NCBI GenBank assembly: GCA_965208125.1
Contig: OZ242320.1
Coordinates: 2,656,001-2,720,000 of the forward strand
Origin: Candidatus Latescibacterota bacterium
GTDB taxonomy: Bacteria; Latescibacterota; UBA2968
Length of the DNA stretch: 64,000 nt
Reading direction: 5' to 3'
Shown: positions 29,358 through 42,597 of the stretch, one piece after another
Numbering within the stretch: position 1 is the first letter of the stretch
How the letters are laid out: each line of letters opens with the position of its first letter
The notes under the pieces: generated by a model
What the model saw: the letters and a program-made list of their open reading frames with translations, nothing else
Database searches by the model: none
Told to the model about the DNA's origin: nothing
Made by a program: the position numbers and the translations under genes

Positions 29358-30342
29358 ATTTGGTATTATGGGATTGGGGCGCGGCCGCGGAGCAGCAAAA
29401 CAGGTGGCAGCAGCAGAGGGTAGCGCGTTGGTTTGCGTGTGTGATTTACAGGAAGACAAGGCCGTGGAGCAGGCCGAAATGTATGGATGCGACTGGTCGA
29501 CGAATTACAAGGCGATGTTTGCGCGCGATGATATCGATGCGATCGGTATCTATACGTCCAGTGGCACGCATTGCGATTACGCCATTGAAGCGATAGAAGC
29601 AGGCAAACATGCATTTGTCACCAAGCCGATGGATATTCTCGTGGAAAAGTGCGATGCGGCGATTCAGGCTGCAAAAGATGCGGGGAAGGTTCTGGCAGTG
29701 GATTTTGGAAATCGCTATTCTAAGGCAAACCAGCAATTGAAGGCAGCCATTGAACAGGGGATCATTGGACAGATTTTTTTGGGTGATGTGAAGATGAAGT
29801 GGTGGCGCGAGCAGAGCTATTACAATGGGGGCTTTCCCATGGGATGGCGCAGCCGCAAAGAGACAGAGGGCGGCTCGATAGCCAATCAGGGTGTGCATTT
29901 TGTCGATCTCATCTGCTGGTTGCTCGGCCCGGTAAAGGAAGTTTATGGGCGCAGTGCAACCATGACACACGATATTGAAACGGAAGATATTACAATTGCA
30001 CAGTTGACATTTCAAAGCGGCGCATGGGGGCTGATTACGACCACGACATCGAGTTACCCAAATTTGGGGACACAAGTGGAGATCAGCGGCACGGAAGGCA
30101 CTGTACGGTGGGATCAACGCGGCGGTATAGAAGTGATGACAAAGGATGAGGAATTGGTAGATTTGAGCCGTTTTGAAGTGCCCGATGCGCCTGCCGATAT
30201 TGCAGAGGATATGGTTTCTGCTATCACCAAAGGCACGGCCCCTGTGGTGTCGGGTGAAGAGGGCCGAAAGTCTGTTGAGCTCTTTTGCGCAGCTTATGCG
30301 TCTTCAAAATCGGGTTCTCCTGTGGTTATTGATCAGCAGTGA
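29344..30342 (+). CDS. Gfo/Idh/MocA oxidoreductase
   Basis: GIMGLG, KHAFVTKPM, GGSIANQGVHFVD. Confidence 0.88.
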   Translation: MSSVRFGIMGLGRGRGAAKQVAAAEGSALVCVCDLQEDKAVEQAEMYGCDWSTNYKAMFARDDIDAIGIYTSSGTHCDYAIEAIEAGKHAFVTKPMDILVEKCDAAIQAAKDAGKVLAVDFGNRYSKANQQLKAAIEQGIIGQIFLGDVKMKWWREQSYYNGGFPMGWRSRKETEGGSIANQGVHFVDLICWLLGPVKEVYGRSATMTHDIETEDITIAQLTFQSGAWGLITTTTSSYPNLGTQVEISGTEGTVRWDQRGGIEVMTKDEELVDLSRFEVPDAPADIAEDMVSAITKGTAPVVSGEEGRKSVELFCAAYASSKSGSPVVIDQQ

Positions 30343-30357
30343 TACGCGGTTCGAAAT

Positions 30358-30846
30358 ATGTCTGAACAGTTGGAAGTAAAACTCGGAATATTGCTTCGAG
30401 AACGGGGCTGGACCATTGCTGTTGCAGAAACCACAACAGGAGGGTTGATCAGCGCCCGCATTGTTTCGGTTCCGGGCAGTTCGGCTTATTATGAGCGCGG
30501 GGTTATTGCGTATAGCGCGTTGTCTAAACGCGAGATGCTGGGGACAGATGTGCAGGTGATGGATACGTATGGTGCTGTGAGTGCAGAAGCCGCGTGCGCA
30601 ATGGCTAAAGGCGTGCGAAAGGTGAGTGGTGCAGATTTGGGTCTGGCCGAGACCGGGATCGCAGGCCCCATTCGCGGTCGGTCGGCCAAGCCCATCGGTA
30701 CGGCGTATATCGCGCTTGCCTATGCAGAGGGCGTGACGTGTAGAGATTTTCGGTTTGATGGGGGGCGCGATGCGATCCGCAATGCGATATCAGATGCTGC
30801 CCTGCAGATGGTGATTGAGACGATACAAAAAGCAATTGATAACTGA
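30358..30846 (+). CDS. CinA C-terminal / PncC-like protein
   Basis: AVAETTTGGL, PGSSAYY, GAVS, TGIAGP. Confidence 0.88.
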   Translation: MSEQLEVKLGILLRERGWTIAVAETTTGGLISARIVSVPGSSAYYERGVIAYSALSKREMLGTDVQVMDTYGAVSAEAACAMAKGVRKVSGADLGLAETGIAGPIRGRSAKPIGTAYIALAYAEGVTCRDFRFDGGRDAIRNAISDAALQMVIETIQKAIDN

Positions 30847-30947
30847 TGTTAAGCAGTTTATCAAAGGAAGCTTCATTTTACCACCATATCTTGTATATCT
30901 CATTTCAAATAAATCACAAGATATAGAGTCGCTGCATAATATCAACT
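30841..30947 (-). repeat. ~105-bp dispersed MITE-like repeat, copy 1, with two NrdR-box-like palindromes
   Basis: Reverse complement closely matches 63772-63877. Confidence 0.8.
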
Positions 30948-31029
30948 GATAACTTGCTTTTTTGCGCGTTCAGCCGTATTTTCAGTGCCCTGTGCGATGT
31001 TCAATAAGTTCTGGGGTTTGGAGGCTTGT

Positions 31030-31380
31030 ATGAGAATTTCGGAAAAGATCCGCGGGGATGTCGCTGTCTTGACCCTGTCGGGTGAATTGATGAGTGGTCC
31101 CGAGGTTGCCCCGTTCCAAGATCATATCAAAAAACTTGTAAATGAGGGTATAAAAAAAGTGGTGGTTGATTTTTCCAGGGTGAGATGGTTTGGCAGTGCC
31201 ATGTTAGGCGTGCTAACGGCGAGTTTGACGACGTTGCGGGGTGAAGGCGGCGATTTGAGATTGACGGGCGTTACCAGAAAGATTGAAAGTATTTTAATGG
31301 TTACGCAGTTGGCAAATATTTTTACGACCCTGGATACAGTAGATCGGGCTGTGGAAAGTTTTGTAGATCAGGATGCATAG
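31030..31380 (+). CDS. STAS domain anti-anti-sigma factor
   Basis: VVVDFSRVRWFGSAMLGVL...GGDLRL. Confidence 0.88.
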   Translation: MRISEKIRGDVAVLTLSGELMSGPEVAPFQDHIKKLVNEGIKKVVVDFSRVRWFGSAMLGVLTASLTTLRGEGGDLRLTGVTRKIESILMVTQLANIFTTLDTVDRAVESFVDQDA

Positions 31381-31392
31381 AGATTTTTTTAG

Positions 31393-31758
31393 ATGAGAGT
31401 GAAAGTTGACATTCGCGACCAGGTTGCGGTTATGACTGTATCGGGTACCCTTATGAGTGGTCCTACGGTCGTTCCTTTTCAACACTATGTCGAAGAGGTC
31501 ATGGCCGATGGCATTACAAATGTCGTGGTCGATTTTTCCAAGGTGAAGTGGTTTGGCAGTACGATGTTGGGAGTATTAGCGGTCAGCCTGGAGATGTTGA
31601 GAAATGCTGGAGGCGATCTCAGGTTGGCTGGCATTGCAAACCGGATGGAGAGTTTGATGATGGTCGGAAAGTTGTCGTCGCATTTTCGCACGTTGGAATC
31701 GGTTGACGCGGCTATCGAAAGCTTTGTATCCGACCCGCCGGGGAGACGGGAAACATAA
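31393..31758 (+). CDS. STAS domain anti-anti-sigma factor (tandem paralog)
   Basis: VVVDFSKVKWFGSTMLGVL...GGDLRL. Confidence 0.88.
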   Translation: MRVKVDIRDQVAVMTVSGTLMSGPTVVPFQHYVEEVMADGITNVVVDFSKVKWFGSTMLGVLAVSLEMLRNAGGDLRLAGIANRMESLMMVGKLSSHFRTLESVDAAIESFVSDPPGRRET

Positions 31759-31904
31759 ATCGCCCCAAACTATCATCTGTATTTCGTTCATAAAAAAGGG
31801 GTGCGATTATATCGCAATCCCTTCTTCTTTTGGAAGAAAGTACGCAAAATATTTAGCCCCATCGACTCGGTGATGAGGCGATATATTGAAAGGAGACACA
31901 TCTT

Positions 31905-34028
31905 ATGTTGCATCGTATGATTCCCCCAGCACTGATGTTCTTATGTGCTTTTGTACAGTGCAGCGAAAAACAACCCGTGCCAAAATACACTGGCGATCTT
32001 CCGCAATTGCAGGATCGCGGCGTATTGCGAGTTATCGTTAGTGAGGAGCCGATTACCTATATTCCCCGGCAGGCGGAGCCGGTGACCTTGGACTACGATA
32101 TTGCCCGTAGTCTGGCCGATGCACTCAAGCTGAAGTTGGAGCTTGTAAAGGCCGATAATTACGTTCAGATGTTGGAAAAACTACTCGCAGGCGAGGGCGA
32201 TATTATCGCCTCCAGCTTGACGGTTACGCCAGATCGAGAAAAGATAGCAGCGTTTTCAGTTCCGTATTTATACGTCGATGAATATTTGATTACAGCGCGG
32301 GCAGATAGTCTGCCTGAGACAGTGACTGATCTGGCGGGTATGGAGATCAGCGTGCGGCAGTCCAGTTCGTATTATCAGACCTTGATCGATGTTCAGAAGG
32401 AGGTGCCGTCTTTACGCATCCACACTGTGTCAGATACGCTCGGTACTGAGGATCTGATTAAAGGCATTGCTCAAGGCGAATACAAAGCGACCTTGTGCGA
32501 CGCGCATTTATGGCATGCCATTGCCAATTATTACAACAATCTCGTTGCGCCGCTCGTTGTGGCCGAAAAGCGTCCGCTCGCTCTGATGATGCGCCCAAAT
32601 GATACACAGCTCAAGGTCGTGGTGGATGAGTATTTGCTGGCGCATCAATTTACGCGGCATCGTCAACAAACGTTTACCGACGATTTGTCCGGTCTGAAAG
32701 AACGTCGCCGGTTGCGGATGATTACGCGCAATAATGCGATGACTTATTTTATTTACCGGGGGCAGCAGATAGGGTTTGAATACGAGCTTATAAAGCGATT
32801 TGCCTCGCAGCACGACCTGCGTCTCGAAATTGTCATTCCGGACAGTCATGCCGAACTGTTGCCGTATTTGAATGAAGGCAAGGGCGATGTCGTGGCTTCG
32901 GCGATGACTATTACTGAGAAACGACAAGAGCAGGCCGCGTTTACGCAACCCTATAAGGAAGTGAGTGAACTGGTGGTGGTGCATGCGGATGACGATTCGA
33001 TTGGCAGTCTTCGGGATCTGGCCGGGCGGACGATACATGTGCGCGCCAGTTCTTCGTTTTATACGACGCTGATGGCGTTGCAGGATTCCGTCAAAGGGCT
33101 CGAGATTGCCATAGTGCCCGATGACGTAGAGACTGAAGATATCTTAGCAGGGGTTGAAGAGGGTATTTATGATCTCACGATGTGCGACTCCCATTTGCTC
33201 GATATAGAACTTGCGTATGGCCGCCGTCTCAAAGCCGCTTTGAGTATCAAGCCCACGGCATTGGGCTGGGCGGTTCGCAAGGACAATCCGGAGTTGCTGG
33301 CAGCACTTGATGAATATATAAAGAAAGAAAAAGGCGGCTTGTTTTTTAATATGATGAAAAATAGGTATTTTAAGAGCACGCGCGCTGTCGCCAGAGCCAA
33401 AGATTCAATGCGGGTCGGTTTGAGCGGTCAGTTGTCGCCTTATGATGATCTAACAAAAAAATACGCCGCTCAATACGGGCAGGACTGGCGGTTGATTACC
33501 GCACAGATGTACCAGGAATCCAGATTTGATCCAGAAGCCGTTAGCTGGGTCGGCGCTCAGGGGCTGATGCAAGTGATGCCGAGCACCGGGCAGGATTTGG
33601 GTTTTACCAATCTTCATGATCCCCAAGAGAGCATTCACGCAGGGGTCAAGTATATGCGTCAACTAATCAACCGGTTCGATCACAATCTGCCGATGGAAGA
33701 GCGGATTCGCTTTGCGCTGGCTTCCTATAATGCGGGGTACGGGCATGTGCTTGACGCCCGCCGCCTGGCGCGAGAAATGGGATGGGATTCCAACCGCTGG
33801 TTTGGCAACGTGGAAAAGGCGATGCGATTGCTGTCCCAACCTTACTACTACGAGCGGGCGCGATACGGTTTTTGCCGTGGCGGCCAGCCCGTGCATTATG
33901 TTGAAAATATTCAGCGTTTCTATGATGCTTATGTCGAAGTACTGAATACGGCGATACCCGTGAAGGTGACACAACCACTTAGTTCGGGCTTCGTCGGACC
34001 TCCGCTTGCTGCAGAAGACCGTCGCTGA
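31905..34028 (+). CDS. mltF: MltF-like lytic transglycosylase with two substrate-binding domains
   Basis: Two SBP family 3 repeats, then SLT motifs QESRFDP, GAQGLMQVMP, ASYNAG. Confidence 0.85.
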   Translation: MLHRMIPPALMFLCAFVQCSEKQPVPKYTGDLPQLQDRGVLRVIVSEEPITYIPRQAEPVTLDYDIARSLADALKLKLELVKADNYVQMLEKLLAGEGDIIASSLTVTPDREKIAAFSVPYLYVDEYLITARADSLPETVTDLAGMEISVRQSSSYYQTLIDVQKEVPSLRIHTVSDTLGTEDLIKGIAQGEYKATLCDAHLWHAIANYYNNLVAPLVVAEKRPLALMMRPNDTQLKVVVDEYLLAHQFTRHRQQTFTDDLSGLKERRRLRMITRNNAMTYFIYRGQQIGFEYELIKRFASQHDLRLEIVIPDSHAELLPYLNEGKGDVVASAMTITEKRQEQAAFTQPYKEVSELVVVHADDDSIGSLRDLAGRTIHVRASSSFYTTLMALQDSVKGLEIAIVPDDVETEDILAGVEEGIYDLTMCDSHLLDIELAYGRRLKAALSIKPTALGWAVRKDNPELLAALDEYIKKEKGGLFFNMMKNRYFKSTRAVARAKDSMRVGLSGQLSPYDDLTKKYAAQYGQDWRLITAQMYQESRFDPEAVSWVGAQGLMQVMPSTGQDLGFTNLHDPQESIHAGVKYMRQLINRFDHNLPMEERIRFALASYNAGYGHVLDARRLAREMGWDSNRWFGNVEKAMRLLSQPYYYERARYGFCRGGQPVHYVENIQRFYDAYVEVLNTAIPVKVTQPLSSGFVGPPLAAEDRR

Positions 34029-34044
34029 GTCTGCATTCCTTATT

Positions 34045-34080
34045 AAAACAGGTATTGCTCAAAAAATAGAGCAATACCTG
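34045..34080 (-). terminator. Hairpin/terminator between convergent mltF and thiC
   Basis: Perfect 12-bp stem CAGGTATTGCTC/GAGCAATACCTG. Confidence 0.7.
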
Positions 34081-34109
34081 ATTCCCTTCCTCGGTTTTAT
34101 CTTTCTGCC

Positions 34110-35938
<1,829 letters not shown>

Positions 35939-35953
35939 CAGCGTTGTTTTGAA

Positions 35954-35982
35954 AATGTAATGAATATATTGGCGTCTGTCAA
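35954..35982 (-). promoter_or_regulatory. Putative thiC promoter
   Basis: TTGACA-17 nt-TACATT just upstream of the riboswitch. Confidence 0.65.
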
Positions 35983-35985
35983 GTC

Positions 35986-36166
35986 GTGACGACTCCCAAC
36001 CGTGAACGTGTTGGGCTTCTTGGCGATTAACCCCGCCTGGGTACATCATCCTGGACCCATGGGCAAAGCAATGTATCTTGTTCACTGGGTAAAAGCAGAG
36101 CAAATAGGCTCTGACCTTCAGGTTTTACCTACACAGGAGGTATGTTTCGTGTAGAACGCCATACCT
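35986..36166 (-). ncRNA. Putative omega/reRNA-like guide scaffold
   Basis: TTGACA(36201-36196)-17 nt-TATACT(36178-36173) promoter; multiple helices and two pseudoknot pairings; ends at the IS right end. Confidence 0.55.
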
Positions 36167-36279
36167 GACAGCAGTATATTCACACTTTGGAGGTCTGTCA
36201 ATGTTCATTTACGCTAAAGCTATGAAAGGAAGCCCTTATTATCCCACGCCTGAAGGCTGTGGGTTTTACGGGCTATTTG
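35986..36279 (-). mobile_element. Non-autonomous IS200/IS605-family element (no tnpA/tnpB) with internal structured RNA
   Basis: Left-end hairpin GTAAAACCCACAGCCTTCAGGCGTGGGAT preceded by TTAT; right end GAAGCCCAACACGTTCACGGTTGGGAGTCGTCAC. Confidence 0.75.
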
Positions 36280-36293
36280 ATAAGGGGAATATC

Positions 36294-36322
36294 TTGACCT
36301 GAAGATGTGAAAATGGTATCTT
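36294..36322 (+). promoter_or_regulatory. Putative thiO operon promoter
   Basis: TTGACC-17 nt-TATCTT upstream of the riboswitch. Confidence 0.55.
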
Positions 36323-36337
36323 TGCAGATTGAAAGAA

Positions 36338-36416
36338 GACAGGGGTGCTTGCTGTTGCAAGCTGAGATTATACCCTTTGTACCTGATCCGGATCGTGCCG
36401 GCGTAGGGAGTTTGTT
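36338..36416 (+). ncRNA. TPP riboswitch (thiO operon)
   Basis: AGGGGTGCTTGC...GCAAGCTGAGA.TATACCC...ACCTGATCCGGATCGTGCCGGCGTAGGGA. Confidence 0.93.
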
Positions 36417-36430
36417 AGACGGATGGTGAG

Positions 36431-36467
36431 ACCACTTTTCGACTCTATGCGAAGGGTGGTTTTTTTT
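36431..36467 (+). terminator. Riboswitch expression-platform terminator
   Basis: ACCACTTTTCG...CGAAGGGTGGT followed by T7. Confidence 0.75.
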
Positions 36468-36481
36468 ACCTTGAGGTTGTG

Positions 36482-37618
36482 ATGGCACAAAAGCGCGTGC
36501 TCATTGTGGGCGGTGGGGCAATTGGACTGGCGGTTGGCTGGCGGTTGGCGCGTGCGGGGCTTGCTGTGGCTCTGTTTGATCGGGGCCGCGTTGGGCACTC
36601 GGCGAGTTGGGCTTCAGCGGGTATGTTATCGCCGCTGTCAGAGGTGCAATTCGAAGAGGAAGATCTGTTGCATCTCGGCCTGAAGGGGCTGGCGGTTTAT
36701 CCCGAATTTGTCAGTGAATTGGAGGCTGACACCGGGAGTTGTGTGGGCTATCGCCGCGATGGGGTGCTGCTGGTGGGCATTACGCAAGACGATCTGGAGT
36801 ACTTAAAATTTCGGTATCGCTATCAGCTCGATTTGGGATTGTCTGTTACTTATCTCTCGGGCGATGAGGCGCGGGAACGGGAGCCGCATTTGTCGGCTCA
36901 GGTGAGTGCGGCTGTGTGGTGTCCGGGCGATCATCAAGTGGATAATCGACGTCTGGTGATGGCGTTGAAGAAGGGGCTTGTGGCAGCGGGTGGCGAGGTG
37001 TTTGAAGAGATGGGGGTAGATGAACTTTTGATAGATGGGAAGCGAGTGCGCGGGGTGCGAGTTGGCGAGGAAGTTTGCGAGGGCGATACAGTGGTGTTGG
37101 CTTCGGGATGCTGGTCGCGATTGATACCGGGTTTGCCCGATTGTGCCAGGCCTCCGGTGCGACCTGTGCGCGGGCAGATTATGCGCCTGACGATGACGGA
37201 GGATTTCGCGCTCAATACAATGGTCTGGTATTCGCGGGTGGCGACTTCCACAGTGGCGTATCTCGTGCCCAAGGATAATGGCCATCTCGTTTTGGGTGCT
37301 ACTTCAGAAGAGATGGGGTTTGATGAAGATGTGACCGCGGGGGGGATGTTTGAACTGTTGCGCGCCGCATGGGAAGTGGTGCCGGGGGTTTACGATTTGT
37401 CTGTGGTTGAGTCCGTGGCGGGATTGCGTCCTGGTAGCCGGGATGACGCGCCTATTTTGGGCGAGACGCCTATTGAGGGTTTGATTATGGCAACAGGCCA
37501 TTATCGGAAAGGTATTTTGCTGGCGCCGCTGACGGCACTATCTATTGCCGAAGTGATTTTGGAGCGGCGCACCCCGGCACTTATTCGGCCTTTTGGGATT
37601 GACCGATTTGGATTATAA
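36482..37618 (+). CDS. thiO: Glycine oxidase
   Basis: GGGAIG, ASWASAGML, PVRGQ, GLRP, ATGHYRKGILLAP; thi context. Confidence 0.92.
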   Translation: MAQKRVLIVGGGAIGLAVGWRLARAGLAVALFDRGRVGHSASWASAGMLSPLSEVQFEEEDLLHLGLKGLAVYPEFVSELEADTGSCVGYRRDGVLLVGITQDDLEYLKFRYRYQLDLGLSVTYLSGDEAREREPHLSAQVSAAVWCPGDHQVDNRRLVMALKKGLVAAGGEVFEEMGVDELLIDGKRVRGVRVGEEVCEGDTVVLASGCWSRLIPGLPDCARPPVRPVRGQIMRLTMTEDFALNTMVWYSRVATSTVAYLVPKDNGHLVLGATSEEMGFDEDVTAGGMFELLRAAWEVVPGVYDLSVVESVAGLRPGSRDDAPILGETPIEGLIMATGHYRKGILLAPLTALSIAEVILERRTPALIRPFGIDRFGL

Positions 37619-37622
37619 ACCG

Positions 37623-37829
37623 ATGCAACTTACAGTAAATGGTCAAGATCAATCAGTGGATGATGCGTCAACGCTGCTCGATTTGCTGATTGAGATGAAT
37701 TTTAACGCCGAACAAAAAGGTATTGCCGTGGCTGTAAATGCCGAGGTCGTAGCGCGGGCGATGTGGGCAGATACGCGGTTGTGCAATGGCGACCGGGTGG
37801 ATATTATTCATGCGGTTCAGGGGGGATAG
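37623..37829 (+). CDS. thiS: Sulfur carrier protein
   Basis: 68 aa, AVAVN.EVV, C-terminal VQGG. Confidence 0.93.
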
Positions 37830-37852
37830 CGGGGAATAACAGTGAGGGTATT

Positions 37853-38629
37853 ATGACAGGCGATTTTAAGATAGCAGGCGTAAAATATCGTTCACGGCTG
37901 TTGATAGGCACTGCGCGTTATCCCAATATGCAGGTGATGCTGAAGTCCGTGGAAACCAGTGGCGCAGAGATTGTAACGGTGGGCATTCGGCGGCTCAATA
38001 TGAATGATGAATCTGGCGAGGGTGTTCTCAATTTGCTCGACCGGTCGCGATACACCATTTTGCCAAATACTGCCGGATGTTTTACGGCTCAAGACGCGGT
38101 GCTTACTGCGCGGTTGGCCCGCGAAGCGCTGGAAACCGATCTGATTAAGTTAGAGGTGATTGGGGATGAACGCACGTTGTTTCCAGATGTGGTGGGGTTA
38201 CTCCAGGCGGCGGAGACCCTGGTGAACGATGGGTTTACGGTGCTGCCCTATTGCAATGACGATCCGATTACCTGTAAGAAGCTGGAAGATTTGGGGTGTG
38301 CCGCTGTGATGCCTCTGGGTGCGCCTATTGGTTCGGGGATGGGGATTCGCAATCCGTACAATATTCAGATTATTCTGGATTCGGTGAAGGTGCCGGTCAT
38401 TGTCGATGCGGGGGTGGGAACCGCATCGGATGCTGCTCTGGCGATGGAATTGGGTTGCGATGGCGTGTTGTTGAATACGGCGGTGGCAGGTGCCCGGCAT
38501 CCGGTGAAGATGGCGATGGCAATGAAGAAGGGAGTTGAAGCGGGGCGGTATGCTTTTGAAGCCGGACGGATTCCCAGAAAGCTGTACGCGACAGCTTCGA
38601 CGGCGATGGAAGGGCGGGTGGAAATTTGA
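37853..38629 (+). CDS. thiG: Thiazole synthase
   Basis: [42 protein letters not shown]. Confidence 0.96.
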
Positions 38630-39240
38630 ATTCATTACCACCTCTCTATCTGATTGCCGATCGGGCAACGTGCGGTGATCGACCAATGCTGGATGTGCTC
38701 GCGTGTGCGCTGGATGCGGGGGTGCGGCTGGTGCAGTTGCGGGAAAAAAATCTGGATAGAGATGTATTAGAGGCTCTGGCTGAGCAGGTGTTGTCGTTGG
38801 TGGCGCGTTATGATGCGATGCTGTTGATTAACTCAGTAGCAGATATTGCCGTGAAGATCGGTGCTCAGGGTGTGCATTTGCCAGGTGATGCATTGCCGCG
38901 GGCGGTCCGAGGTCGGGTGGGGCCGTCATTTTTAATCGGCTATTCCACACATACCTGTGTGGAATTAGATTGCGCTGACGGGGCAGATTTTGTGACTTAT
39001 AGCCCCATTTTTACACCGGGGTCTAAACCCGGGTGTGATGGCGTGGAAGTAGGGCTTGCGGGATTGGCAAATGCGGTGGCGCATTCTCGCTTACCCGTTT
39101 ATGCGCTGGGTGGAATTACACCTGATCGCGCAGCCAAATGCCATGCAACGGGATGTGCGGGTGTCGCGGTGATGTCGGGTATTTTGGCGGCGAGAGATCC
39201 GGCCAGGGCGGTACGTGAATTTTTGAAGGTATGGGAATGA
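38626..39240 (+). CDS. Thiamine phosphate synthase family protein (ThiE/TenI-like)
   Basis: VQLREK, GVHLP, STH, SPIF...[12 protein letters not shown]. Confidence 0.8.
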
Positions 39241-40031
39241 AACAAGCCCTGACAATTGCGGGTTCGGATTCCGGCGGTGGTGCGGGCATTCAGGCGGATT
39301 TGAAAACATTTCACGCCCATGGCGTGTTTGGTCTGTCTGCGATTACATCGGTTACTGCTCAAAATACGCAAGAGGTGCGTGCGGCTTGTGATTTGCCCGA
39401 AGAGATTGTCCGCGCTCAGATAAGTGCCGTGTTTGACGATTTTGAGATTGCTGCGGTGAAGACGGGGATGTTGTCTTCGCGTGAGATTGTAGAGGCTGTG
39501 GCCGATGAGTTGACAGTTCGCAATGAGCAACCGCTCGTGGTTGATCCGGTGATGATTTCGACGAGTGGGTTTCCGTTGCTTAAGGGCGATGCGATACAAT
39601 GTATCACAGATCGTTTGTTGCCGCTCGCTACATTGGCGACGCCGAATTGCCCTGAAGCAGAATTGTTGATGCATAAAAAGATAAAAACGCGAGGGGATGC
39701 CGGATTTGCTGCGCGCAAAATTGCCGATTTGGGCGCGTGTGCCGTGTTGGTGAAGGGGGGACATTTGGAGGGTACAGCGGTGGATGTGTTGTGGGATGGG
39801 GCGTGTGAAACGATTTTTGAGAGTGAACGCATAGATACCGGGAATACACACGGGACAGGTTGTACACTGGCATCGGCGATAGCTGCCAATTTTGCGCTGG
39901 GATACGGGTTGTGCGATGCGATAGATCGGGCAAAAAATTATGTTACAGAAGCTATCCGGCATGGTCTGGATATTGGCGAAGGTAACGGTCCTACGAATCA
40001 TTTTTATTTTTTAAATTATACTGACCGCTAA
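39237..40031 (+). CDS. thiD: Hydroxymethylpyrimidine/phosphomethylpyrimidine kinase
   Basis: LTIAGSDSGGGAGIQADLKT, VDPVM, THGTGCTL. Confidence 0.95.
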   Translation: MKQALTIAGSDSGGGAGIQADLKTFHAHGVFGLSAITSVTAQNTQEVRAACDLPEEIVRAQISAVFDDFEIAAVKTGMLSSREIVEAVADELTVRNEQPLVVDPVMISTSGFPLLKGDAIQCITDRLLPLATLATPNCPEAELLMHKKIKTRGDAGFAARKIADLGACAVLVKGGHLEGTAVDVLWDGACETIFESERIDTGNTHGTGCTLASAIAANFALGYGLCDAIDRAKNYVTEAIRHGLDIGEGNGPTNHFYFLNYTDR

Positions 40032-40039
40032 CGTCTAAT

Positions 40040-40651
40040 ATGAAAAAAATTGGCAGACTTCACGTCATAACCGATGTTGTTTTGCAAGATCGCTTTTCAC
40101 ACAGTGCGCTGGCGCAAATGGCTGTTGCCGGCGGAGCGGATACCATTCAGTTTCGACAAAAAGAGGGTTCGACGCGCGCGTTGATTGAGACCGCTATTGC
40201 CGTGAAGCATGCGTGTGGTGATGTGCCTTTGATTGTGAATGATCGGGTTGATGTGGCGATTGCCGCAGAGGCCGATGGGGTGCATTTGGGACAAGATGAT
40301 TTTCCCATTGAAAAGGCACGCGATTTGCTTGGGGAAGATGCTGTGATTGGCGGGACGGCAAAGACGCTTTCACAGGCGCATCAGTGTGTTGCCGAAGGTG
40401 CGGATTACATCGGTTTTGGACCGATTTATGCAACTGGTTCAAAGGCAGATGCGGGTATGGTGAAAGGTCTGGAGGGGTTGCGCGAGATGGTCAATGGAGT
40501 ACGTATGCCAATTATTGCTATTGGGGGCATTGGAATAGAAAATGCTGGCGAGGTAATGCGCGCAGGGGCGCACGGTATTGCGGTGATTTCAGCCGTGTGT
40601 TGTCAACCCGATTCCACTGAGGCGACCCAAAGGTTGATGGATCAAATATAG
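40040..40651 (+). CDS. thiE: Thiamine phosphate synthase
   Basis: QFRQK, IVNDRVD, GVHLGQDD, T.SK, AIGGI, AVISA. Confidence 0.9.
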   Translation: MKKIGRLHVITDVVLQDRFSHSALAQMAVAGGADTIQFRQKEGSTRALIETAIAVKHACGDVPLIVNDRVDVAIAAEADGVHLGQDDFPIEKARDLLGEDAVIGGTAKTLSQAHQCVAEGADYIGFGPIYATGSKADAGMVKGLEGLREMVNGVRMPIIAIGGIGIENAGEVMRAGAHGIAVISAVCCQPDSTEATQRLMDQI

Positions 40652-40659
40652 GTACGATT

Positions 40660-42597
40660 TTGTCTAAAAGCCATTTGATTATTCGCACGCTGGTTCTGAT
40701 CCCGATTTTTGCGGGGTGTCAGCCAGGTGAACAGGTGACAGTTTCGGGTGCGGTTGCAAAGCCGGGTACTTATGTATATCAGTCCGATAAATCGGCGAAC
40801 AGTTATCTCGAAGATGCCGGTGGCATGACGGAAGAAGCACTTCTCGATAGTGCATATCTGGTTCGCGGTTTGGTTGACTCTTCTGGCAAAGAGATAATCA
40901 AAAGTGTGACGATTTCCCTGTTGGAGCATCCAGAAGTTTTGCCCGATGATGTGATTAAAGTGCCAGTTCGCGTTTATGACGTGCGATTGGATACGGTTCG
41001 CGTTTTGCGCGATGTCCGATTGGTTCAAGAGAATCGGATTTTCAAAATTCCCGCGGGTGCCCTGGTGTCTGGGTGGACAGAGCGCGGCGTGCTGGTCGCG
41101 TTGTTACTTGGCCGTGGAAAAGTTTACGAGATGGCTGATACCGCAAAGGCAGTATGGGCTTTTCACTACTTATACGTTCATTTGCATCCCGATGAATACG
41201 ATCGCCTGAGGAGTTTTGCGGGAGATGTGATTGACAGTTTGGAGGCTCTGGAAGATGCACACGCCATCCATACACGCACCAGAACGCAGTTGGATTATGT
41301 GCATTACGCAGGGTTGCAACTTCCGCCTGCGGGTTATTGGCGCGTGTTGCTCGGGATTTTGCTAACGCCCAGGAGTGCATCCTTCCCGGGTAGTGGATTG
41401 CGCCGGCGTCGCTTTGAGGATGGGCGTGTGTGGACGACTTTTCCCAATGGGCGACAACGCTGGCAGTATCCCGATGGGCGGGTGGAGGTGATATTTCCCG
41501 GGGGCGTGAAGAAAGAAACCCGATTTCCCGATGGGCGGGTTGTGTCTGCCGCTGAACTGCAGGTGTCTCGCTTGAAAGATGAGTCGGCGGTTCGCAATGG
41601 TGTAGCCGGCGGCGCAATGGAGGAACGCGCTTCGGAAAGGGTGACGGAGATTTCGGCAGGGATAATACCCGATGGCTCTATAGTAACCCGCAAAAAAGAG
41701 GGAAATGAGCCTGCTATTCAGCCCGATGGATATATGATTGTGAAAGGGGTGGATGGTTCAACTCGAGAAACATTTCCCGATGGGCGAGAGATCGAGAGTA
41801 ATCGCTTTGGACAAAAGATCACCTCGTGGCCCGATGGTCGAAAAGAAGTGCGAATGCCGGTGGCATACAGTTATCCCGGTCCGTTGCGAACAGATCTCGC
41901 GGAGGTCAATCCGCTTCCAGATTCGATTGCTGTAGGTGAAGAACTGACGGTTACAGGGCAGTTACACAGCGAGGTGGAAGATATATCTGTCGCTGCTTTT
42001 ATCGCGCCCGATGGCAATGTGATCAAAGGGGCTGTGCGAAGGCGGGGGCGGCGGTTTCAGGCTCGGTTTCGGTTTGGGGAGGTGGGACATTGTCGCGTAC
42101 AGGTTCAGGTTGTCCTGCCCAGGGCACGCACCTTTACGGTTTCGCACCAGGCTGTGGTTGTTGGCAATCCCGAGAAGTTAGAAGATGAAGTTTTGACAAT
42201 AGCCCCTTATCCAGGCGATGAGGCGGCTGAACAATTTTTGATTGATCAAATTAATGCGGCGCGAAGGCGGATTGGATGTCAGGCTGTACTTCCACATCCC
42301 AATTTGATGCATGTGGCGCGCATCCGCCTCGAGGAAATGTTGGCTTTGGGTGAGGTATCCCACTTTTCTTTTGGAGGATTGGATGTGATGTGGCATGTAA
42401 CCGCCCGACGCTTGCCATTTTCCCAGGTGGGTGAAAATGTGGCAAACGGACATTTTGTCGAAACGATGCAGGCAGGTTGGATGTTAAGTGCGGGCCATCG
42501 TTCAAATATATTGGCGAGACACTGGACACATGTGGGGGTAGCTGTGGCAAAAGATAGGGACCTGGTGTGGGGCGTTCAGGTGTTTGCACGGCAATAA
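40660..42597 (+). CDS. Multidomain putative lipoprotein: SLBB-like N-terminus, (F/Y)PDG beta-hairpin repeats, C-terminal CAP domain
   Basis: FAGC lipobox; VTVSGAVAKPGTY...AGG; FPNG/YPDG/FPDG repeats; INAAR...GENVA...WMLSAGHRSNIL...VGVAV. Confidence 0.7.
   Translation: MSKSHLIIRTLVLIPIFAGCQPGEQVTVSGAVAKPGTYVYQSDKSANSYLEDAGGMTEEALLDSAYLVRGLVDSSGKEIIKSVTISLLEHPEVLPDDVIKVPVRVYDVRLDTVRVLRDVRLVQENRIFKIPAGALVSGWTERGVLVALLLGRGKVYEMADTAKAVWAFHYLYVHLHPDEYDRLRSFAGDVIDSLEALEDAHAIHTRTRTQLDYVHYAGLQLPPAGYWRVLLGILLTPRSASFPGSGLRRRRFEDGRVWTTFPNGRQRWQYPDGRVEVIFPGGVKKETRFPDGRVVSAAELQVSRLKDESAVRNGVAGGAMEERASERVTEISAGIIPDGSIVTRKKEGNEPAIQPDGYMIVKGVDGSTRETFPDGREIESNRFGQKITSWPDGRKEVRMPVAYSYPGPLRTDLAEVNPLPDSIAVGEELTVTGQLHSEVEDISVAAFIAPDGNVIKGAVRRRGRRFQARFRFGEVGHCRVQVQVVLPRARTFTVSHQAVVVGNPEKLEDEVLTIAPYPGDEAAEQFLIDQINAARRRIGCQAVLPHPNLMHVARIRLEEMLALGEVSHFSFGGLDVMWHVTARRLPFSQVGENVANGHFVETMQAGWMLSAGHRSNILARHWTHVGVAVAKDRDLVWGVQVFARQ

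Follow-up and report, generated by a model that had tools for sequence, protein, structure and literature searches.

A 294-bp protein-less IS200/IS605 element with a predicted omega-RNA-like transcript between divergent thiamine promoters in a Candidatus Latescibacterota genome

A 64,000-nucleotide stretch of the genome of Candidatus Latescibacterota bacterium (GCA_965208125.1, contig OZ242320.1, positions 2,656,001 to 2,720,000 of the forward strand; the window) carries, on the minus strand at 35986–36279, a 294-bp ORF-less element of the IS200/IS605 family. This mini element lies directly 3' of a TTAT motif (36280–36283) and between the divergent promoters of thiC and thiO, each of which is followed by a thiamine pyrophosphate (TPP) riboswitch. 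Judged from its sequence features, it is a non-autonomous, protein-less IS200/IS605 derivative of the palindrome-associated transposable element (PATE) type, kin to tnpB-only elements of ISDra2-like type that this genome also carries. We assign a probability of about 60% to the reading that it acts as a trans-acting guide, with an internal promoter driving an omega-RNA that would use TnpB and TnpA supplied in trans. An initial annotation of this DNA had proposed a gene-less IS200/IS605 element between two TPP-riboswitch promoters, and all of the sequence features that it described are present. Its interpretation is supported at the sequence level, where the tests named there (other copies, related tnpB ends, covariation and empty sites) gave the predicted outcomes. 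The span that it gave (35966–36283) contains the element, but the TTAT motif and a 20-nt flank included in that span lie outside the element proper.

Three observations set the boundaries: an alignment of copies, the empty sites of relatives and a contig joint (35985 to 36280). All but one of the 20 other genus genomes gave a match to the thiC leader, and the junction was inspected in 15 of these 19. At 14 of these 15 junctions the two flanks abut with only the 4-nt motif at the TTAT position between them: eight genomes read exactly TTATGACTTGACAG, that is ...CCTTAT-GACTTGACAG (the hyphen marks the insertion point), and six others differ by one or two bases near the motif. The remaining junction, in genome G015, holds a 47-nt left-end stub at the same TTAT. 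In four more distant genomes of the genus, the spacer is short and insert-free in two and filled with unrelated, repeat-rich sequence in the other two. Contigs of the public runs X8 and X16 join 35985 to 36280, skipping exactly 294 nt, and the filled thi allele is represented as well, by the contigs X1 record 2 and X8 record 26. The empty site TTAT-GACTTGACAG shows no target-site duplication. The base-exact joints and the empty sites therefore define the element as 35986–36279, inserted 3' of TTAT without duplication. The predicted empty-site alleles reading TTAT-GACTTGACAG are thus in hand, exactly so in eight genomes and as the contig joint in two public runs, and the precise absence of the segment from relatives excludes the contrary outcome, an ancestral segment fixed between the thi genes.

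Several variant forms were noted at these sites. The G015 stub (L047:1459–1512) reads TTAT-CAAATAGTCCGTAAAACCCA...GTGGGAAGCAGACGC-GACTTGACAG, and the same type of stub occurs in contigs of runs X1 and X2, which skip 255 nt with eight letters between. Because the stub ends inside a left-end variant that is seen elsewhere, it seems to be what an internal deletion left of an earlier insertion. A left-end variant with an additional palindromic block of about 28 nt (AAGCAGACGCGAGTTGGCGAGCGTTG...) after the hairpin is present at L016, L023, L033 and L037, and also in the filled thi allele of run X8 record 26, at window positions 36238–36241. In genomes G018 (L057:~1000–1465) and G010 (L058:~1340–1463), which represent two of the more distant species, the thi spacer is enlarged by C/T-rich tandem-like repeats that are unrelated to IS605.

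The search for further copies covered 61 genomes, namely the source genome of the window (G000) and 60 relatives, and the matches were confined to the genus, where 17 of the 20 other genomes gave one. Full-length copies with 82–88% identity are present in G015, G011, G005, G017, G006 and G020, and G014 holds a copy with 73% identity. In a further G015 copy the left end is largely lost, down to its first 24 nt, and G019 and G004 hold 3' fragments of the element. Full or near-full copies occur in seven other genomes at five other sites, one of which is an orthologous site common to four genomes; six genomic sites are known in the genus in all, that of the window included. TTAT precedes the left end in all nine mini copies that have one, these nine finish with GTCAC, and every copy ends with ...GGGA(G/A)T(C/A)GTCA(C/T) followed by unrelated DNA. 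The expectation of further copies with the same scaffold, a shared TTAT and a variable 3' flank is therefore borne out at five other genomic sites. An exact-pattern scan for the right-end core with one genome per species returned eight loci, all of them known copies from the genus, in records of Candidatus Latescibacterota metagenome-assembled genomes (MAGs), and the same scan of JGI metagenome contigs gave no matches.

The copies also carry signs of mobility. The G015 copy at L010 has an empty site of its own in G000, which reads ...GGCTATACTTAT-GTGTGTTC (...ACTTAT-GTGTGTTC), again with no duplication. Public run X2 contains a copy that is 99% identical to that of the window (three differences), with sequence past the right end that is unrelated to thiC; such near-identity with a different flank points to recent movement. 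No TPP riboswitch was detected with Rfam within 1.5 kb of any of the ten other copy loci. At L015:639–691 in G020, about 0.8 kb from the mini copy of that genome, there is a DUF3800-VI RNA motif (RF02915, 40.3 bits). An orphan left end at C1:4616073–4616118 of G000 (L002, L006) is 96–100% identical to the first ~45 nt of the element and follows TTAT, with no recognisable remainder of the element downstream. Solitary 42-nt left-end hairpins were considered as a REP-like family of their own and this was rejected, most of them being the left ends of other, longer family members.

TTAT at 36283–36280 precedes the left end in copies and is kept at empty sites. It is followed on the minus strand by a left-end subterminal hairpin (CCCAC-loop-GTGGG, 36263–36243) and an internal sigma-70-like promoter (TTGACA-17-TATACT, 36201–36173), all three as initially described. 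The left-end hairpin sits in a conserved pattern, AGCCCGTAAAACCCA...TGGG...AAGGGCTT...GCTTTAGC, which recurs in many left ends of the genus and, as a pattern, in elements that carry both tnpA and tnpB. From 36166, a 5' end that is predicted only, to 35986 extends a structured RNA part of about 181 nt resembling an omega-RNA scaffold, as judged by covariation and a covariance model, which ends with GAGTCGTCAC. It includes the GTGAAC strand (36085–36080) of a proposed pseudoknot and the right-end hairpin CCCAAC-ACGTTCACG-GTTGGG (36015–35995), the loop of which supplies the 3' strand GTTCAC (36007–36002). Subterminal hairpins are thus present at both ends, akin to those of the family members that carry tnpA or tnpB. 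Beyond the right end, the flank GACTTGACAGACGCCAATAT (35985–35966) would be the guide; it differs at every copy and contains the thiC -35 box. The element is overlapped by short ORFs only, the longest of 104 amino acids, for which no homology search was made, and neither tnpA nor tnpB lies inside it. The 104-residue ORF (36103–35789, minus strand) starts with TTG inside the element, extends over the right end, the promoter of thiC and its TPP riboswitch and is most likely spurious. A small reading frame starting with ATGGCG within the RNA part was rejected, since indels among the copies shift its frame (alignment judged by eye).

The same genome provides close relatives of these ends. G000 encodes five close copies (88–100% identity) of a 374-residue TnpB in tnpB-only elements of about 1.3 kb each (C1:166218–167593, 216645–217993, 1381662–~1380300, 1663336–1664624 and 1764731–~1766100). 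The protein contains the Pfam domains OrfB_IS605, Cas12f1-like_TNB and HTH, and it matches the structures of ISDra2 TnpB over its whole length (E = 9e-51; PDB entries 8bf8, 8exa and 8h1j). Four of the five copies are open, with the RuvC motifs GIDVG, IAVEKL and DRDHNAAINI; the fifth (C1:1380496–1381618) has a frameshift, and beyond residue ~150 its original frame contains many stops. At the left end, the tnpB-only elements have in common with the mini element TTAT or TTAC, then C..A.AGCCCGTAAAACCCA-loop-TGGG, GCTTTAGC and TTGACA-17-TATA, which in them stands just before the tnpB start codon; the left-end hairpin is present in all five. The right end common to the mini and tnpB-only elements, its hairpin included, is GGCGG..CCGCCAAGAAGCCCAAC-loop-GTTGGGAGT.GTCAC. 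The internal promoter aligns with TTGACA-17-TATATA ahead of tnpB in the full-length elements and is therefore the positional equivalent of that site. Two Y1 tnpA genes (PF01797), candidate mobilisers of the mini element, were found in G000, in tnpA+tnpB elements with the same end pattern. The proposed check for a tnpA/tnpB element with the same ends thus came out in favour, with resident tnpB elements whose ends are related; in the RNA part, only the 3' ~76 nt resembles theirs.

The two tnpA+tnpB elements (C1:552558–554002, L008; C1:1106315–1107780, L007) are apparently autonomous and encode a TnpB that shares only ~27% identity with the five close copies. Both finish with ...GGGAGTATGTCAAT, and one of them seemingly lies beside TTGAC, not TTAT. 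A 7-nt sequence, CTCGCAG, is inserted in end hairpins at the right end C1:216645–216775, at the left ends of the C1:1380496 and C1:1765896 copies and in the mini right ends of G006 (L014) and G014 (L016). Its presence at the left ends of some copies and the right ends of others suggests exchange between end hairpins.

Conservation of the RNA structure was assessed on an alignment of the RNA part from 11 copies (ten distinct rows, mean column identity of 81%). The structure was that of the initial annotation, including two pseudoknots, with 48 pairs and 467 cells counted, and all of the pairings listed there, including AGGTATG/CATACCT with the interleaved CTACAC/GTGTAG, exist in the window copy. 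Pairing is possible in 91.0% of the cells, compared with 27.6–40.2% when the 3' partners are slid, and 17 of the 48 pairs are changed on both sides, compared with two to five when slid; none of 500 shuffles equalled the observed pairing and covariation values. The paired percentage is inflated because the structure was derived from one of the aligned sequences; the compensatory counts are not. The covariation that had been put forward as a check is therefore strong. Among the well-supported helices, compensatory pairs are distributed over CTACAC/GTGTAG (four), CAGAGC/GCTCTG (three), TGGGT/ACCCA (two), GGCG/CGCC (one) and the right-end hairpin (two). The initially proposed pseudoknot between GTGAAC and the hairpin loop GTTCAC pairs in 60 of 60 cells and has comparative support: it shows two compensatory pairs, its strands changing to CTGAAG/CTTCAG in G004 and to CTGGAG/CTTCAG, with one G-U, in G019. 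AGGTATG/CATACCT is a weaker helix (82.5% of cells paired) and GGTAAAA/TTTTACC is the weakest (78.6%, with one pair broken in eight of ten rows).

A covariance model built from the nested part of this structure (R1) was searched over the 21 genomes of the genus. Eleven copies score 132–220 bits, one truncated fragment scores 72.5 bits and more than 100 other sites score 29–50 bits. This last range holds most matches at tnpB-type right ends, including the five tnpB ends of G000 at 34–43 bits. Inspection of the alignments showed that tnpB 3' ends have the last three stems too, altered in a compensatory way, for instance to TGACGTT/AACGTCA where the mini element has TGGGT/ACCCA. Upstream of about position -76, the corresponding region of the tnpB elements is tnpB coding sequence and is unlike the mini interior. 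The 5' domain of the mini RNA part, an interleaved two-helix pseudoknot with a branched stem, covaries and is without counterpart at the tnpB 3' ends searched.

Transcription from the internal promoter is suggested by the sequence of the promoter and its retention. TTGACA-17-TATACT agrees with the consensus at 11 of 12 positions, and the hexamers, with a spacer of 16–17 nt, are kept in all nine copies that have the region. A consensus scan of 35800–36500 found four promoter-like sites, compared with 0.8 ± 0.9 in shuffled sequences. The transcription data consist of assembled contigs, which show no starts or ends and fit either the presence or the absence of a transcript.

Beyond the right end on the minus strand, the thiC promoter (TTGACA-17-TACATT, 35982–35954; 10/12 in the scan) is conserved in relatives, and its -35 box, which had been noted in the 20 nt next to the element, begins 3 nt past the insertion point. 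The thiC TPP riboswitch follows at 35941–35852. On the plus strand, the promoter of the thiO operon (TTGACC-17-TATCTT, 36294–36322; 9/12, with TG before the second hexamer) has its -35 box ~10 nt from the insertion point and is followed by the TPP riboswitch of the thiO–thiS–...–thiE operon at 36331–36426. The hexamers of both promoters are retained. The fourth site of the scan is weaker (TCGTCA-18-TATATT, 35992–35963, minus strand; 9/12) and overlaps the right end and the thiC promoter. Both riboswitches are real by their Rfam scores (RF00059), 70.6 bits for the plus-strand copy and 58.7 bits for the minus-strand copy, which are above the gathering score of 54.3. thiC flanks the locus on one side, and thiO, thiS, one unassigned ORF and thiE lie on the other. 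In the interval from the right end to the thiC riboswitch, no terminator-like site was listed by the scan of 35800–36500, so the transcript would probably enter the thiC leader, where the TPP riboswitch would still gate it. The position of the element between two riboswitch-controlled promoters appears incidental.

The element has kept a left end with a TnpA-type hairpin, a tnpB-type promoter-like site and a right end with the predicted ~181-nt RNA. It went in by peel-and-paste next to TTAT, on its 3' side and with nothing duplicated, at a point flanked by the thiC and thiO -35 boxes. On the preferred reading, that of a trans-acting guide, the internal promoter would make an omega-RNA with the flanking DNA (GACTTGACAG...) as its 3' guide, and TnpB from one of the four intact tnpB elements would bind this RNA in trans. 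TnpA would excise the element from one strand, leaving the scarless joint TTAT-GACTTGACAG; the RNA-loaded TnpB would cut that joint, and recombination with a filled sister copy would restore the element. The excision, cleavage and restoration steps are modelled by analogy with Meers et al. (2023). Transcription, TnpB binding, cleavage and mobilisation of the element are accordingly stated here as expectations of the model. The anatomy is that of a guide RNA at a right end: the conserved structure stops with GTCAC, where the element finishes, the flank beyond is variable, and the transposon-adjacent motif (TAM) plus the flank equals the donor joint. TTAT followed by the guide has no other occurrence in G000, so there would be no self-target while the element is in place.

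Some of the evidence weighs against a guide that works with the resident TnpB, and much of it equally favours the main rival, a reading that we consider possible but rather unlikely: the same mini-transposon would be a plain PATE or miniature inverted-repeat transposable element (MITE) that needs only TnpA, its interior having drifted from a former tnpB 3' end or mattering as a single-stranded DNA structure during transposition, and TnpB making no use of it. The 5' 105 nt of the RNA part cannot be aligned meaningfully with the 3' ends of the resident tnpB genes, nor does it resemble any other tnpB 3' end found; the resemblance of the 3' ~76 nt is partial (~70%; 52–55 of 77 positions identical, and 53 of 83 for one copy). 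No tnpB with a mini-type 3' interior was found in the 21 genus genomes with R1 or in exact-pattern scans. The sole R1 hit between 132 and 50 bits, at 72.5 bits, is a right-end fragment of 130 nt, upstream of which no tnpB ORF lies; the truncated or decayed relatives at L017, L018 and L085 have no tnpB upstream that would mark a full-length parent and no left-end match to the query, and that such relatives exist suits a decaying remnant. According to Nakagawa et al. (2023; PMC10097598), the ISDra2 omega-RNA has a functional scaffold of 116 nt made up of four stems and one pseudoknot, and sequence 5' of -117 is dispensable. ISDra2 TnpB contacts this 116-nt scaffold, so that part of the equivalent region here is unlike the resident one. 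The ISDra2 pseudoknot pairs nucleotides -5 to -3 with -103 to -105, whereas the covarying mini pseudoknot uses the loop of the last hairpin. The covariation fits RNA or top-strand single-stranded DNA alike, and the single-sequence fold is only modestly better than that of shuffled sequences (z = -2.04; 3 of 200 shuffles fold as well). The Rfam search proposed at the outset did not place the element in any family: nothing beyond the two TPP riboswitches was found in 30000–42000 at E ≤ 1, and at E ≤ 5 neither the element nor a complete tnpB element gave a match. G000 itself holds a single full copy. The contigs show no transcript decisively. A 450-nt contig from an RNA library (X8 record 26) spans 35910–36326, including both thi promoters, and is no proof of a transcript because untranscribed promoter DNA is also covered, which may reflect DNA carry-over; the contigs of another RNA run, X16, leave 35990–36221 without cover. 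Against the plain PATE or MITE stand the interior helices, which are not known to be needed by TnpA and yet covary (four pairs in helix 2, three in helix 5 and two in helix 7, at 73–88% identity), the retention of promoter hexamers and spacing in nine of nine copies, and the identity of the three stems nearest the guide with those common to tnpB elements.

Two further explanations centre on the thi locus. The insertion could have been co-opted for thiamine control, with its outward promoter feeding the thiC leader, or the element separating the divergent promoters, and kept for that reason. The promoter is indeed directed at thiC, no terminator-like site is listed before the thiC riboswitch and the insertion is 3 nt from one -35 box and ~10 nt from the other, but a thi-site element was seen only in G000 and in public-run contigs (X1 record 2, X8 record 26); among the same-genus genomes examined, 16 lack the insertion and one has the 47-nt stub. 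The same element also sits at unrelated loci elsewhere and both thi promoters keep their hexamers, which makes co-option improbable. An ancestral origin as a stretch fixed between the thi genes, such as an extended riboswitch leader or a regulatory RNA, would suit a highly structured segment between two TPP riboswitches. This origin is so improbable as to be almost negligible, given the empty sites that refute it, the copies elsewhere with no TPP riboswitch nearby and the ends in common with tnpB transposons.

The idea of a guide in trans is not new. Protein-less IS200/IS605 derivatives are known as PATEs, a Haloquadratum paper (PMC3119063) being one of the sources; Meers et al. (2023; PMC10055086) report PATE-like elements in G. 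stearothermophilus and state that PATEs frequently carry omega-RNA genes whose products would depend on a TnpB supplied in trans, and Zedaveinyte et al. (2023; 10.1101/2023.11.20.567912) report a PATE with IStron ends. The concept is already in print with Meers et al., such elements are rarely dissected and the mini element is a well-resolved further example. A literature search that covered sources other than supplements and extended-data figures found no dedicated study of promoter-driven, omega-RNA-only elements. Like PATEs, the mini element has IS200/IS605 ends with subterminal hairpins, no ORF, a short conserved adjoining motif and several loci, and it probably depends on a transposase in trans. 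It differs in that its anatomy is resolved, with a tnpB-type promoter-like site abutting the RNA, and in its 105-nt covarying 5' domain, which is absent from any tnpB 3' end searched. Its host belongs to an uncultured lineage, and the element is known from sequence alone.

Comparison with ISDra2 gives a similar mixture. As in ISDra2, the mini RNA would end at the right-end boundary and continue into the flank, with the TAM adjoining the left end. Both have a hairpin immediately upstream of the guide, and the upstream strand of the mini pseudoknot, at about -100 to -95 from the guide, lies in a place similar to that of its ISDra2 equivalent (PMC10097598). The TAM is TTGAT in ISDra2 and TTAT here, and the mini RNA is not embedded in a tnpB gene. 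An ISDra2-like alternative pairing, GUGA with the terminal UCAC, can form in 95% of cells, with no compensatory pairs, and is broken in the two strand-changed rows; the loop pseudoknot and the ISDra2-like terminal pseudoknot are both possible in the mini RNA. The resident tnpB-only elements agree with the mini element in the left-end pattern, TTAT/TTAC, TTGACA-17-TATA, the right end and three 3' stems but are ~1.3 kb long and carry tnpB. TldR proteins, described in PMC10705468 as TnpB-like nuclease-dead repressors guided to promoters, offer a further comparison: they too pair a TnpB-family guide RNA with a promoter target, the predicted target of the mini guide being the thiC -35 box. The resident TnpBs, in contrast, keep all three RuvC motifs, the target of the mini guide with its TAM exists only where the element is absent and the mini element is mobile and not a fixed regulator.

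Two features merit the attention of specialists: the promoter that has been kept and adjoins the RNA part, and the 5' domain with its covariation. We suggest tentatively, and with clearly less confidence than for a guide in trans as such, that the mini elements form a self-standing, guide-only hyperparasite lineage, in which the 5' domain would let the guide RNA form and be stabilised without processing of a TnpB mRNA. If so, they would be a natural promoter-driven single-guide cassette that exploits the TnpA and TnpB of other elements. The guide covers the thiC -35 box and the empty thi allele would then be a cutting target wherever filled and empty alleles meet. More generally, the element offers a clean natural example of a predicted omega-RNA gene apart from its nuclease, with base-exact boundaries, both filled and empty alleles and candidate TnpB and TnpA partners in the same genome. 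The boundaries, the two alleles and the candidate partners make three ideas directly testable: the modularity of TnpB systems, guide-only free-riding on TnpB-driven retention and the extent of the scaffold that TnpB needs.

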